Origin: a virus
Taxonomy: Duplodnaviria > Heunggongvirae > Uroviricota > Caudoviricetes
Virus record (IMG/VR): IMGVR_UViG_2724679293_000007
Coordinates: 1-64,000 of that record
Direction: 5' to 3' (one strand)
Length of the DNA: 64,000 nt
The translations under genes were made by a program, and so were the position numbers. Positions 7,867 through 64,000 of this stretch are shown here, piece after piece (within the stretch, counting starts at the first letter, position 1; the number at the start of each line of letters is the position of its first letter). The notes under the pieces are model-generated. The model was not told the DNA's origin. It was given only the letters and a program-made list of their open reading frames with translations, and ran no database searches.

Positions 7867-8088
7867 ATGCAATCCATTAACTTCCGTACCGCGCGCGGCA
7901 ACCTTTCTGAAGTGCTCAACAATGTTGAAGCCGGGGAAGAGGTTGAAATCACCCGCAGAGGCCGTGAGCCAGCAGTAATTGTCAGCAAGGCTACTTTCGA
8001 AGCCTACAAAAAAGCGGCGCTGGATGCTGAATTTGCATCCCTGTTTGACACCCTGGACTCCACCAACAAGGAACTGGTTAACCGATAA
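7867..8088 (+). CDS. phd: Phd antitoxin (prevent host death)
   Basis: 73 aa [44 protein letters not shown].. as recalled for P1 Phd; ORF track starts at upstream GTG 7861. Confidence 0.95.
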
Positions 8089-8468
8089 TGAGGCATATAT
8101 CACCGGAAGAACTTATTGCGCTTCATGATGCGAATATAAACCGCTACGGCGGCCTGCCTGGCATGTCAGATCCGGGCAGGGCAGAGGCCATTATCGGGAG
8201 AGTCCAGGCCAGAGTTGTGTACGAAGAGATTACCGACCTTTTCGAAGTCTCCGCAACCTACCTGGTGGCTACTGCGAGAGGGCATATATTCAATGATGCC
8301 AATAAGCGTACCGCGCTAAACAGTGCGCTGTTATTTCTACGCCGTAACGGGGTGCAGGTATTTGATTCACCTGAACTGGCAGACCTTACCGTAGGGGCTG
8401 CGACCGGAGAGATATCTGTATCTTCTGTCGCCGACACGTTACGTAGATTGTATGGTTCCGCGGAGTAG
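8088..8468 (+). CDS. doc: Doc toxin (death on curing), Fic-fold kinase
   Basis: 126 aa [39 protein letters not shown]..; 1-nt start/stop overlap with phd. Confidence 0.95.
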
Positions 8469-42768: not shown

Positions 42769-43346
42769 TGACATTCAGAATGAGTGAACAATCACGGACC
42801 ATAAAAATTTATAATCTACTGGCTGGAACCAATGAGTTTATTGGTGAAGGTGATGCATACATTCCACCTCATACAGGTCTGCCTGCAAACAGTACCGATA
42901 TTGCCCCGCCAGATATTCCGGCTGGCTTCGTGGCCGTTTTCAACAGTGATGAGGCATCGTGGAATCTCGTTGAAGACCATCGGGGAAAAACCGTCTATGA
43001 CGTGGCTTCCGGCGACGCGTTATTTATTTCTGAACTTGGCCCATTACCGGAAAATGTCACCTGGTTATCCCCGGAAGGGGAGTTTCAGAAGTGGAACGGC
43101 ACAGCCTGGGTGAAAGATGCAGAAGCAGAAAAACTGTTCCGGATCCGGAAGGCGGAAGAAACAAAAAACAGCCTGATGCAGATGGCCAGTGAGCATATTG
43201 CGCCACTTCAGGATGCCGTAGATTTGGATATTGCGACGGAGGAAGAGGCATCGTTACTGACTGCATGGAAGACATATCGGGTATTGTTGAATCGTGTTGA
43301 TACAGCAGTAGCAGCGGATGTTGAGTGGCCAGTCGCCCCGCAATAA
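42768..43346 (+). CDS. U', alternative tail-fibre assembly chaperone
   Basis: 192 aa, Tfa-like C-terminus ([12 protein letters not shown]); start overlaps Sv' stop. Confidence 0.7.
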
Positions 43347-58927: not shown

Positions 58928-59125
58928 ATTTTTTTAGCTTCATATGCTACATTAACTTGCTTGCGTGCTAATGCATTTTCGGTTTATCCTAAACAGGCAT
59001 CTTAGTAAAACGGATGCCGGGATTGGAACCCCGGATAATGCAAAAGGCGACACAGACGCCAAAAGCGTCTTTTTTTGTGTCATGCCATCGCACAGCCATA
59101 CGTAGCACATAGCTCCGAGATCAAT

Positions 59126-59205
59126 GGTAGTGCTGGCTGGGCTGCCGAAAGGCAGGCCGGTTCCCTTTTGCGCCGGTAGTTCCAACCCAGTCAGTGCTAC
59201 CGCCA
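59126..59205 (+). ncRNA. c4: c4 antisense repressor RNA (immI), tRNA-like precursor
   Basis: About 77-80 nt; long terminal stem (59126-59141 pairs with 59186-59201) ending GCCA, internal GNRA hairpin CTGCC-GAAA-GGCAG, exposed GGUUCC elements complementary to GGAACC targets at 59021-59030 and 59211-59219. Confidence 0.55.
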
Positions 59206-59261
59206 TTGAGATTGGAACCTCACGCGGTAGCTCCTTAAATTAGCAAAAGGAGGCTGCCATT

Positions 59262-60600: not shown

Positions 60601-60617
60601 TTTGCTCTAATAAATTT
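60601..60617 (+). promoter_or_regulatory. C1 operator (TTTGCTCTAATAAATTT), Op53-like
   Basis: 16/17 match to consensus, 70 bp upstream of kilA. Confidence 0.7.
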
Positions 60618-61516: not shown

Positions 61517-62362
61517 ATGCTGGCTAAAGTCACTTTCCTGAGCTGTATAACGATGAGCGATTTTACTTTTTCTGGCTATGAATTGGCCTGCTTTGTAACA
61601 CACTCCGGTCTATCCCGTAGCGCCGGGCATATCCTGTCGCAATGTGCAAATCTCGCGGCAACAACCAGTGAATACTTCATTCACAAGCCTCACCGCCTGA
61701 TCGCGGCAGAAACTGGTTATAGCCAATCAACCGTCGTTCGTGCATTCCGTGAAGCTGTAAACAAAGGAATCCTGTCTGTAGAGATTGTTATCGGCGATCA
61801 CCGTGAACGTCGCGCTAACCTGTACCGGTTTACACCATCCTTTTTGGCCTTCGCACAACAAGCCAAAAATGCGCTGATTGAAAGCAAATTAAAGATCTCT
61901 TCAGCGGCAACCAAGGTTAAAGCTGTTCTCGCTAAGACATTGGCTTTATTTAATTTTTTATCCACACCCCCATGTCAAAATGATACCCCCTCCCCCTGTC
62001 AGGATGACGTGGCAATAAAGAATAAGAAGTCACAAGTTAAAAAAACAAAAAGATCAGTTTCCGGCGGTGCCGGAACGAGCAGACTCAAAAAATTGACTTC
62101 ATGGATCGCTGAGGCAAAAGCAAAGGCTGACAATCTGCGGTTATCCAAAAAACGCGCTCAAAAACATGAGTTCAAGCAGAAAGTAGAGGCGGCAGCGCGG
62201 AAATATGCTTACCTGAAGAACAAGCGTTCTCCTGATATTTGCGGGATATCAAACTTCGATAATCTGCCGCATTGCATGACGGTAAACAAAGCTCTTAATG
62301 CGGTTTTAGCCAAAAATAAAGATAACGAACAATGGGGTATACCGGCAGGATTCAGAGGGTGA
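61517..62362 (+). CDS. repL: RepL, lytic replication initiator (oriL inside gene)
   Basis: 281 aa, size and position after kilA match recalled P1 RepL. Confidence 0.75.
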   Translation: MLAKVTFLSCITMSDFTFSGYELACFVTHSGLSRSAGHILSQCANLAATTSEYFIHKPHRLIAAETGYSQSTVVRAFREAVNKGILSVEIVIGDHRERRANLYRFTPSFLAFAQQAKNALIESKLKISSAATKVKAVLAKTLALFNFLSTPPCQNDTPSPCQDDVAIKNKKSQVKKTKRSVSGGAGTSRLKKLTSWIAEAKAKADNLRLSKKRAQKHEFKQKVEAAARKYAYLKNKRSPDICGISNFDNLPHCMTVNKALNAVLAKNKDNEQWGIPAGFRG

Positions 62363-62412: not shown

Positions 62413-62658
62413 ATGCAATCTGATTTTTTACAGTTAGCGATCGCTTTTGCAGGATATGTTTGTATTGGCTTCTGTGTATACATGATCAGCCGAAAAATGC
62501 TTGTCGATATCGACCGCAAAGAACGAGCAGAGGAGATCTTAGTATGGATTTTCTTTGGCGCGGTCTGGCCATTAGGGATCATGTTTGCTGCAACATTTCT
62601 TCTGATGTGGATATTCACCCTTCCAGGTGATTTCTATAGAAAAAAAGCCAGACATTGA
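62413..62658 (+). CDS. small membrane protein (81 aa)
   Basis: Track ORF 62332-62658 overlaps repL; start moved to ATG 62413 with GAGG RBS; two hydrophobic helices. Confidence 0.45.
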   Translation: MQSDFLQLAIAFAGYVCIGFCVYMISRKMLVDIDRKERAEEILVWIFFGAVWPLGIMFAATFLLMWIFTLPGDFYRKKARH

Positions 62659-62781
62659 TACAATCGTTGCGGGTGCTTGAGGCTATCTGCTTCAGGCATG
62701 ACCCGAAAAGCAGATAGAAGAAAGCCCCAGATAACATTACGCGTCCTGCAAGACGCTTAACATTAATCTGAGGCCATATCT

Positions 62782-62988
62782 ATGCTTAGCATACGTAGAT
62801 TAGCCTCTTACCGACCAAAAGGTCAAGGAGAAGCAGGCTATGAAGCAGCAAAAAGCGATGTTAATCGCTCTGATCGTCATCTGTTTAACCGTCATTGTGA
62901 CGGCACTGGTAACGAGGAAAGACCTCTGCGAGGTACGAATCCGAACCGGCCAGACGGAGGTCACTGTCTTCACAGCCTACGAATCTGA
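62782..62988 (+). CDS. mok: mok-like overlapping reading frame (modulator of killing)
   Basis: 68-aa frame starting upstream of hok and overlapping it out of frame, the arrangement of hok/sok loci. Confidence 0.35.
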   Translation: MLSIRRLASYRPKGQGEAGYEAAKSDVNRSDRHLFNRHCDGTGNEERPLRGTNPNRPDGGHCLHSLRI

Positions 62989-62995
62989 AAGGTAA
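62840..62995 (+). CDS. hok: Hok-family type I toxin (51 aa)
   Basis: MKQQKAMLIALIVICLTVIVTALVTRKDLCEVRIRTGQTEVTVFTAYESER closely matches recalled Hok; below ORF-track size cut-off. Confidence 0.85.
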   Translation: MKQQKAMLIALIVICLTVIVTALVTRKDLCEVRIRTGQTEVTVFTAYESER

Positions 62996-63300
62996 GAGAC
63001 CTGGCGGGGAGTGATCCCCGCCACTCTTCGTGTGTCTGGTAACCTCAATGCACCCTTTTCTCCCCAATAGTGTAAAACACAATGAAGTAGAAGGAGTTAT
63101 TTCACATCATGCAAAGATTCAGACCATATCTCCCAATAGCCTTCGCGACATGATGACTTTCAGAAATATCTAGCTGTTAACAAAATTCCATACTTGCTTT
63201 GCTAATACCACCTAGATTATATATGGAAAAATACACCTAAAACTTAAACAAATTATATCCACAACAAACATCCATCTATTAGGATTAAAATTAATTTAAT

Positions 63301-63342
63301 AATAAATAATACAACACCGGTTCATTTTCTAACAAACCGGTG
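63301..63342 (-). terminator. intrinsic terminator after MazG-like gene (CACCGGTT-12nt-AACCGGTG + U-rich)
   Basis: 8-bp stem followed on minus strand by TTGTATTATTTATT. Confidence 0.55.
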
Positions 63343-63349
63343 GGCACCA

Positions 63350-63964
63350 TTATTGGAATAACTTACTGATTACATTAAAAACATTAAGGGCGTTACTTGC
63401 CACACTAGACATCTTGGCTGAATTTTTTTCGATTGAGTCAAGAACACTTTCGACTTCCGATAAAGTTCTTCTGCTATCTGCATCTTTTCCTGAGTCTATC
63501 GCATCTTTAATTGCAGATATAGCAGACTCTAAATTCTCCTTAAACTCACCTGTCGTCTCATCCTTCAAGAGAAGTTCTAACTCTTGTTTAAGTTTTTCCA
63601 ATGATGCTCTTTTCTCATCAGTTTTACTAATCTTCCCTGAATAACTGACACAAACACATTCTCTTTTATTGCAGACAGGACAACCATTTAGATAATAACT
63701 TTCAAACGCCTCGCCAAGATCATCATCTTTAAAAATAATCCCCCATAAAGAAAACAACCAAGCATATATATCAGCACACTCTTCATGAAGATTTTCTTTG
63801 TTGTAATTTTTATCTTCAATTGATTTAGCATAAGCCTCTTGCAACTCACCCAACTCTTCGAATAACCTGGATGAATGATAAAACCCACCAAAAGTAGACC
63901 AAATGGTTCTATTCGACGGATAGATATCATTAATCATTCGTGGCGCATAAGGCGGAAATTGCAT
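63350..63964 (-). CDS. MazG-like NTP pyrophosphohydrolase domain protein with CxxC..CxC motif and helical C-terminus (204 aa), AT-rich
   Basis: EELGELQEAY...(17 aa)...EECADIYAWLFSL fits the EExxE...ExxD all-alpha NTP-PPase signature; low GC. Confidence 0.55.
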   Translation of the reverse strand: MQFPPYAPRMINDIYPSNRTIWSTFGGFYHSSRLFEELGELQEAYAKSIEDKNYNKENLHEECADIYAWLFSLWGIIFKDDDLGEAFESYYLNGCPVCNKRECVCVSYSGKISKTDEKRASLEKLKQELELLLKDETTGEFKENLESAISAIKDAIDSGKDADSRRTLSEVESVLDSIEKNSAKMSSVASNALNVFNVISKLFQ

Positions 63965-64000
63965 AGGTTTAATAGCGTTATATTTATTGAAAAGCTCATC

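Follow-up and report, generated by a model that had tools for sequence, protein, structure and literature searches.

Near the end of a 64,000-nucleotide (nt) stretch of viral DNA (IMG/VR record IMGVR_UViG_2724679293_000007, positions 1 to 64,000; hereafter the window) lie a short toxin gene, hok, an overlapping leader reading frame, mok, and a putative antisense RNA gene, sok. The element is an IncY P1-like plasmid-prophage of low or single copy number, in which hok/sok is cargo in the variable slot between repL and bplB. It is likely that the region is an intact hok/mok/sok module of the HokD/HokW clade, with post-segregational killing beside the phd-doc module as its most probable payoff. 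The original prediction, made from the sequence alone, had named a hok/mok type I toxin-antitoxin (TA) module here, and this identity is supported by Pfam, by Rfam family RF01794, by the tac and fbi fold-back elements and by a Sok promoter (Table 1).

The product of the hok open reading frame (ORF), MKQQKAMLIALIVICLTVIVTALVTRKDLCEVRIRTGQTEVTVFTAYESER, matches the Pfam HOK_GEF profile over its whole length (profile positions 1-42 of 42, E=2.4e-22; the score is 78.7 bits, for a gathering threshold of 22) and PHROG 251, 'MokW-like host killing' (E=4.9e-32), and a match to the NCBIfam Hok subfamily fell below its cutoff (49.5 vs 73). The gene has no frameshift or stop, and mok is open with no stop before hok; both frames lie where the original prediction had placed its 51-amino acid (aa) Hok homologue and its upstream mok-like frame. 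The mok ATG is 58 nt upstream of the hok ATG (transcript nt 112 vs 170) and is invariant among 70 close relatives, as is the GAGG Shine-Dalgarno (SD) sequence preceding it. In plasmid R1, mutating the GAGG mok SD abolishes toxicity (PMC9841398). The mok frame gave no protein-family match, as expected of an overlapping leader frame. Only one copy of the module is present, with no second hok leader found in the 64-kb window.

A consensus scan identified a putative mok-hok promoter with an extended -10 element, in which the TG is at 62656-57 and the hexamer (62659-62664) ends 7 nt before the predicted transcript start, G62671. The -10 hexamer aligns with TAGAAT, TAAGAT and TATAAT of relatives and the transcript start, GGGUGC, is conserved. 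Homology to lambdoid prophage copies, which carry the annotation mok/hok, spans approximately 62659-63056, which is essentially the transcript, and Rfam model RF01794 matches end to end at 62671-62845 on the plus strand (E=1.5e-26; 113.9 bits, for a gathering threshold of 59). Although this model is named 'sok antitoxin (CssrC)', it in fact describes the sense hok leader from the tac stem to the hok AUG. We considered and rejected a Sok RNA on the plus strand at the place of this match, as the model, 157 nt long, includes the tac stem and stops at the hok AUG; a plus-strand match that starts at tac and ends at the hok AUG is therefore the sense leader, with Sok corresponding to the reverse complement of the central part. 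Automated annotation with RF01794 will assign 'sok' to the wrong strand and give it roughly double its true length.

The tac and fbi elements, a search for which had been proposed with the original prediction, are paired in both the minimum free energy (MFE) fold and the RNAalifold consensus. In the MFE fold of 62671-63062, at -156 kcal/mol (z=-7.6), the RNA is closed by pairing of tac with fbi, and folding of the 3'-trimmed RNA shows a 5' metastable-type hairpin. Three partners are available to tac: it pairs with fbi when the RNA is full-length, with ucb once the RNA is processed, and with the segment next downstream in a nascent metastable hairpin. From its role in R1, ucb would mask the mok SD in the closed form and pair with tac in the open form, and the tac-ucb leader structure is supported by the full-length match to an Rfam model comprising the tac stem, the 5' stem and the target hairpin. 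The 5' stem lies between tac and ucb. The Sok-target stem-loop has a 16-nt extension relative to the Rfam consensus, and mutagenesis of R1 indicates that the 3' stem-loop shields the processed mRNA from 3' exonucleases (PMC9841398).

To examine covariation, 106 unique modules from 132 fetched loci were aligned, of which a non-redundant set of 46 (alignment A1) was used for consensus folding. Independently of the fold of the window, RNAalifold on A1 recovers the tac-fbi helix, the 5' stem, the target hairpin, the long-range helix and the 3' hairpin. Overall, 97.8% of cells are paired, compared with 38-43% when the partners are slid by 1-3 columns, and 21 pairs have double-sided changes, compared with 4-12 in the slid controls; none of 500 shuffles reaches the observed values. 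The tac/fbi helix is paired in 99.3% of cells, and its position 4 reads U-A in 32 of the 46 relatives, C-G in 11 and U-G in two, and is broken in one. The long-range CUCUUAC/GUAAGAG pairing (helix 4) is present in 99.1% of cells, and helix 3, in the Sok-target stem-loop, contains four compensatory pairs (for example G-C in 24 and A-U in 21).

Sok had been predicted on the minus strand across the mok start, at roughly 62740-62810. The strand and the position across the mok start stand and the intervals overlap, but 62797-62826 is the promoter and the 3' third of the RNA was omitted, such that ~62790 to ~62720 is a better placement; this is because a start at G62790 fits and because the complementarity of sokW, the antitoxin RNA of hokW-sokW in the Shiga toxin (Stx) 2 prophage Sp5, is 71 nt. 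A search for a Sok promoter, also proposed with the original prediction, found TTGACC-18-TAATCT, and a complementary RNA is predicted. Its layout would consist of a free 5' tail (62790..62776, ~15 nt, complementary to the mok start region), a hairpin (62775..62723) and a U-rich tail, and the RNA folds at -32.9 kcal/mol (z=-6.2). The dinucleotide CA at 62790-91 is invariant in the 70 relatives and probably marks the Sok start, fitting initiation at G62790. In the Sp5 study, sokW has a 71-nt sequence complementary to the hokW 5' untranslated region and was detected with a northern probe equivalent to 62762-62791. The Sok -10 (62797-62802) aligns with the sokW -10, TAACCT, and the same study reported that a 'promoter-less' sokW construct, in which TAGGTTAGCC was changed to CCGGCTCGCC (primers YO-421/422), lost antitoxin activity; this change hits the TAACCT hexamer. 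A strict promoter scan requiring at least 4/6 matches per hexamer found no Sok promoter, which we regard as a threshold artefact because the -10 of this family is always weak (TAnnCT; R1, sokW). The predicted sok gene has a promoter, is complementary to the mok initiation region and ends in a hairpin and U-tail.

Table 1. Positions of the elements of the hok/mok/sok module, and of other features in the window.
Feature	Position	Strand	Details
hok toxin gene	62840-62995	+	51 aa; HokD/HokW clade; N-terminal transmembrane (TM) helix; Cys30, Tyr47
mok leader ORF	62782-62988	+	68 codons; +1 frame relative to hok; overlaps hok
mok SD, GAGG	62770-62773	+	invariant, 70/70 close relatives
hok SD, AAGGAG	62825-62830	+	read from the sequence; invariant in A1; overlaps opposite-strand Sok -35
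Predicted mok-hok promoter	62637-62664	+	-35 TAGAAA (62637-62642), 16-nt spacer, extended -10 TGaTACAAT (consensus scan)
mok-hok mRNA	62671-63058	+	predicted +1 at G62671; runs just past fbi
tac	62671-62682	+	GGGUGCUUGAGG; folds, Rfam tac-stem, covariation
ucb/anti-SD, AAGCCCC	62721-62728	+	Rfam structure alignment, window MFE; role from R1 (PMC9841398)
Sok-target stem-loop	62723-62775	+	3' arm holds mok SD; same bases form the Sok hairpin on the minus strand
CUCUUAC	62805-62811	+	long-range pairing with GUAAGAG 62992-62998, which includes the hok stop codon
GC-rich 3' stem-loop	63003-63022	+	GGCGGGGAGUGAUCCCCGCC; helix 11, 4 compensatory pairs
fbi	63043-63055	+	CCUCAAUGCACCC; complementary to tac, one bulged U
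Sok promoter	62797-62826	-	-35 TTGACC (62826..62821), 18-nt spacer, -10 TAATCT (62802..62797)
Predicted Sok RNA	~62790 to ~62720	-	~71-75 nt; ends predicted to within ~3 nt
Tyr47 codon, TAC	62978-62980	+	in UACG motif; columns T308-A313 invariant in A1
81-aa ORF	62413-62658	+	two predicted TM segments; between repL and hok; stop codon inside hok promoter
MazG-like cassette, left part	63059-64000	- (gene)	1548 nt total, AT-rich; cut by window end
phd-doc	7867-8468		type II module; PhdYeFM 2.8e-13, Fic/DOC 5.3e-9
C1-operator-like sites	9725, 13998, 14462, 14545, 16582, 26377, 30227, 58911, 60601		

The part of the mRNA that would be contacted by the Sok tail is far more variable than the rest of the module. 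Among the 70 close relatives this 17-nt target (62776-62792; mok codons 1-4 and the spacer following the SD) has a diversity of 0.32, about 10 times that of either the hok coding sequence or the Sok hairpin (0.03 each). Of 5426 complete E. coli genomes, 4722 contain related copies; the number of places per genome has a median of 2 and reaches 9. The variability of the tail target may reflect diversifying antisense specificity among co-resident hok/sok copies, which could then coexist without cross-talk. A second point of detail is the codon for Tyr47, whose UACG motif is a candidate site for adenosine-to-inosine (A-to-I) editing by TadA (Tyr to Cys), by analogy with the equivalent codon of hokC, hokD and hokE, for which such editing is described in a preprint. 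According to the literature, editing at this Tyr codon creates the second cysteine of a toxicity-linked disulfide.

The frame of mok, read at -57/-58 relative to the hok ATG, differs among the 106 unique modules, being in frame with hok in 77 and +1 in 17; all P1-like copies in the sample have the +1 arrangement. An in-frame mok start gives a 70-aa N-extended Hok, and the in-frame group includes one R1-type IncFII copy. The toggling arises from 1-nt indels, which also shift the Sok promoter spacer from 17 to 18 nt. Many of the 70-aa 'Hok family toxin' entries in databases are in-frame mok-hok readings, often given as the annotated protein. The possibility that the +1 mok is a defective frameshift of an ancestral in-frame 70-aa ORF was rejected, as R1 itself has the 58-nt (+1) offset. 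Such a change of frame is tolerated since translation of mok has to extend no further than the hok SD, as found in work on R1 (PMC9841398). In most relatives the +1 frame has no stop through hok, irrespective of the frame of mok, and its openness is therefore uninformative about selection.

A comparison with the R1 hok/sok (parB) locus, suggested with the original prediction, shows a shared architecture: a Hok of ~50 aa, tac and fbi, a ucb anti-SD, a 3' hairpin, an antisense Sok over the mok initiation region and a transcript of ~390 nt, with mok 58 nt upstream of hok and in the +1 frame (R1 nt 116 vs 174; PMC9841398). The two loci nevertheless have only ~49% nt identity over the mRNA and 42% aa identity in Hok, and they differ in that the window Sok hairpin is longer by its 16-nt extension, that R1 is a conjugative IncFII plasmid rather than a plasmid-prophage, and that the window variant has no terminator after fbi. 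Much closer are the lambdoid hokD/hokW loci (Rac, Stx phages, and hokW-sokW of Sp5 in E. coli O157:H7 Sakai), which belong to the same clade, have 86-91% nt identity over the transcript and, in hokW-sokW, share the extended Sok hairpin, the aligned -10 elements and the 71-nt complementarity of sokW. HokD-type Hok is identical at 48 of 51 residues (94% aa), the differences being T42A, S49P and R51E. The lambdoid copies differ in that mok is mostly in frame, the Sok promoter is TTGCCT-17-TAACCT and the 5'-tail target is different; they also have their own terminator and are located in the nin/Q region instead of downstream of repL. The toxin of hokD (relF) in the Qin prophage of E. coli K-12 is nearly identical to that of the window, which PGAP calls HokD, but the K-12-type locus matches only positions 167-396 of a 411-nt query and therefore has no promoter, tac, sok or mok start; the copy in the window, by contrast, is complete.

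The sequence and structure elements and their conservation were observed directly, and the mechanism is modelled by homology with R1 and with hokW-sokW of Sp5, from which the RNA half-lives, toxicity in the host and killing phenotype would likewise follow by analogy. A constitutive promoter would give rise to a ~390-nt mok-hok mRNA in which tac and fbi pair to form a stable, untranslatable RNA with the mok SD masked by ucb. Slow 3' trimming would then remove fbi, allowing tac-ucb pairing to expose both the Sok-target hairpin and the SD of mok. As long as the element stays quiescent in the cell, short-lived Sok would bind to the mok initiation region and block translation of mok, and hence of the coupled hok, and its pairing would trigger RNase III cleavage. 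When Sok synthesis stops, either from plasmid loss or from a shut-off of transcription, the stored mRNA would be translated and Hok would depolarise the inner membrane.

The genes around the module are arranged as c4/icd/ant, kilA, repL (61517-62362), an 81-aa ORF, hok/sok, a MazG-like gene on the minus strand, and bplB; in canonical P1 the repL-bplB interval contains rlfA-rlfB-pmgF instead. The 81-aa ORF matches PHROG 3772 (function unknown) over its full length (6e-54), with no Pfam, NCBIfam or PADLOC match, and corresponds to the hypothetical protein directly upstream of hokD in plasmid records. Identical DNA is present on several E. coli plasmids, where the PGAP annotation reads 'type I toxin-antitoxin system toxin HokD', and one GenBank 'Punavirus P1' record annotates 'MokW' on the module. 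About 477 plasmid records carry the region at 95% identity or above, compared with 516 that carry the repL of the window, and the module is therefore the rule in natural P1-like elements; the resulting figure of ~90% is approximate, being a ratio of two counts and not an overlap of plasmid sets. The module is absent from laboratory P1 and P7. The phd-doc module, which the original prediction had correctly located, is part of the same element and both modules are expected to kill or arrest cells that lose it, but the antitoxin of phd-doc is a protein, its toxin is a Fic-family kinase and the module is part of the conserved P1 core, whereas hok/sok combines an RNA antitoxin with a membrane toxin and occupies hypervariable region 5 (the rlfA-rlfB-pmgF slot).

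The location of hok raises the question of whether the module helps in lysis or induction, instead of or besides addiction. The gene starts 300 nt downstream of repL and has the same orientation as the kilA-repL operon, which is under C1 control, and no C1 operator was found between repL and hok, where P1 has Op55; the gap holds only a weak 5-bp hairpin. The nearest operator-like site, at 60601-60617 (1 mismatch), precedes kilA. Nine such sites (ATTGCTCTAATAAATTT, with up to 3 mismatches) are present in the window, where 0.33 are expected by chance. With hok co-oriented below kilA-repL, no operator-like site and a weak hairpin only, a release of Hok that is coupled to induction has to be taken seriously, as an alternative to addiction or as an added role; in it, inactivation of C1 would lead to loss of Sok, and early Hok would permeabilise the inner membrane and give faster lysis and phage release. 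A possible trigger would be read-through transcription from the C1-repressed kilA-repL operon, which would interfere with the convergent Sok promoter. The 86-91% DNA identity to lambdoid prophage copies is in keeping with this role, as is the behaviour of the closest studied relative, hokW-sokW in Sp5, where sokW disappears on induction, HokW appears ~1 h before the endolysin and phage yield is halved without the locus, and a crude test finds the upstream neighbour co-oriented with hok in 55 of 70 unique viral loci. However, the read-through mechanism is speculative, and even in Sp5 the loss of sokW is unexplained and the effect only ~2-fold; moreover, P1 has its own holin, endolysin and lysis-control genes, and laboratory P1 and P7 lyse normally without the module. 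We regard such a role as possible but tentative.

A more specific version of this reading, that the module is wired to the P1 lysis-lysogeny switch through kilA-repL read-through which occludes the convergent Sok promoter, and that it also has a diversifying Sok specificity code, seems doubtful. If true, a single cassette would cause addiction during lysogeny and speed up lysis once the prophage is induced, and read-through logic of the kilA-repL type could explain the loss of sokW on Sp5 induction.

The slot itself bears on another possibility, anti-phage exclusion by abortive infection, in which a lytic phage shuts off host transcription, Sok is depleted, and Hok kills the cell first and so protects clonal hosts. 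The repL-bplB interval is the hypervariable 'region 5' of a survey of 77 P1-like phage-plasmids, in which hok is unmentioned, and this cargo region also holds the MazG-like gene; R1 hok/sok on a high-copy plasmid has been reported to cut T4 plating by 42% and plaque size by ~85%. The reported effect on T4 is nevertheless weak and seen at high copy number only, Hok has no PADLOC match, and, according to a survey, hok is not enriched near defence systems. This explanation appears very unlikely.

The 3' end of the module differs from that of its relatives. In most P1-like copies fbi is followed after ~12 nt by a bidirectional terminator, AAAAAAGCTCCCGAAGGAGCTTT; the lambdoid and R1 copies likewise have a terminator of their own in this position. 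In the window, the MazG-like cassette replaces exactly the 20 nt that hold this terminator, and a plus-strand terminator scan downstream of fbi found none up to 63400. With no intrinsic terminator, this variant would give the hok mRNA no fixed 3' end, and transcription probably continues, antisense, into the MazG-like gene, with the end set by Rho or by exonucleases. Within the sample the cassette is present only in the window and in two other loci (L003 and L055); the full gene (L003:6751-7743, minus strand) encodes a 330-aa protein called 'MazG-like' by PGAP, with a weak match to PHROG 2245 NTP-pyrophosphohydrolase (NTP, nucleoside triphosphate; 3.5e-6) and no Pfam, NCBIfam or PADLOC match. 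In three other P1-like copies (L058, L061 and L067) an IS186-type terminus (…GATCCC|ATAAGCGCTAACTTAAGGGTTG…) interrupts the GC-rich 3' hairpin directly behind the stop codon of hok and parts fbi from the transcript, and the same hairpin site carries an IS186-type insertion in a K-12-type hokC (L018). Insertions into the hairpin of such unrelated copies suggest that it is a hot spot at which hok loci are inactivated.

These losses, together with the absence of the module from laboratory P1 and P7 and a preprint reporting chromosomal hok loci to be inactive for killing, could mean that hok/sok is a selfish or silent passenger, retained by hitch-hiking or because it is hard to lose, and poorly expressed or inert like the chromosomal hok of E. 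coli. We consider this unlikely, as both ORFs and all of the regulatory elements are intact and the module is nearly invariant across hundreds of plasmids; furthermore, HokD-type peptides are toxic when expressed (preprint) and the homologous hokW-sokW is a working TA pair (Sp5 study).

Post-segregational killing beside phd-doc is favoured by the nature of the element, a low-copy IncY plasmid-prophage that already uses phd-doc, and by the presence of near-identical DNA in the ~477 plasmid records. Several observations weigh against it. The Sok promoter has a suboptimal 18-nt spacer and matches only 3/6 positions of the -10 consensus; Hok, at 42% aa identity to R1 Hok, belongs to the prophage/chromosomal clade and not to the R1 plasmid clade; and the window variant is without the intrinsic terminator after fbi, a feature of the prototype although not a strict criterion of the family, the loss of which may alter the pool of stable full-length hok RNA. 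Some P1-like copies are disrupted by IS186 and the module is therefore dispensable. Finally, a preprint summarises that post-segregational killing was not mediated by chromosomal hokA, hokB or hokC, and the tested relative, hokW-sokW, acts in lysis and not in maintenance. Taking these together, we think it highly probable that the module is an intact, working TA system, while the case for its contributing to plasmid addiction is about evenly balanced.

Other Rfam matches at gathering level are located elsewhere in the window: isrK (58997-59075, 58.5 bits) and the C4 antisense RNA (59120-59207, 76.7 bits), in the immI region upstream of icd/ant, and IS009 (43111-43309, 192.7 bits). Among the fetched loci, near-identical E. 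coli-type hok is present on short contigs assigned to Acinetobacter idrijaensis (L015, 275 bp) and Xanthomonas pisi (L027, 431 bp), and at 88.6% identity in an 'Actinobacillus phage' (PP818812); these non-enterobacterial occurrences are probably contamination or mis-assigned hosts.

The module is already known: its family is a textbook one, RefSeq and GenBank contain annotations of precisely this sequence, experiments have been reported on a close relative, and the enrichment of hok in prophages has been surveyed in the literature. Its presence is ordinary for P1-like elements and nothing in it is new in kind. Natural P1-like phage-plasmids usually carry two TA systems, one RNA-controlled and one protein-controlled. 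P1-like phage-plasmids are increasingly noted as carriers of extended-spectrum beta-lactamase and other resistance genes. The laboratory P1 and P7 references carry only phd-doc, and curing or displacement strategies and stability models based on laboratory P1 may therefore underestimate the persistence of wild elements. The module is also a good natural test case for whether a prophage-clade hok/sok serves in post-segregational killing, in lysis assistance, or in both.

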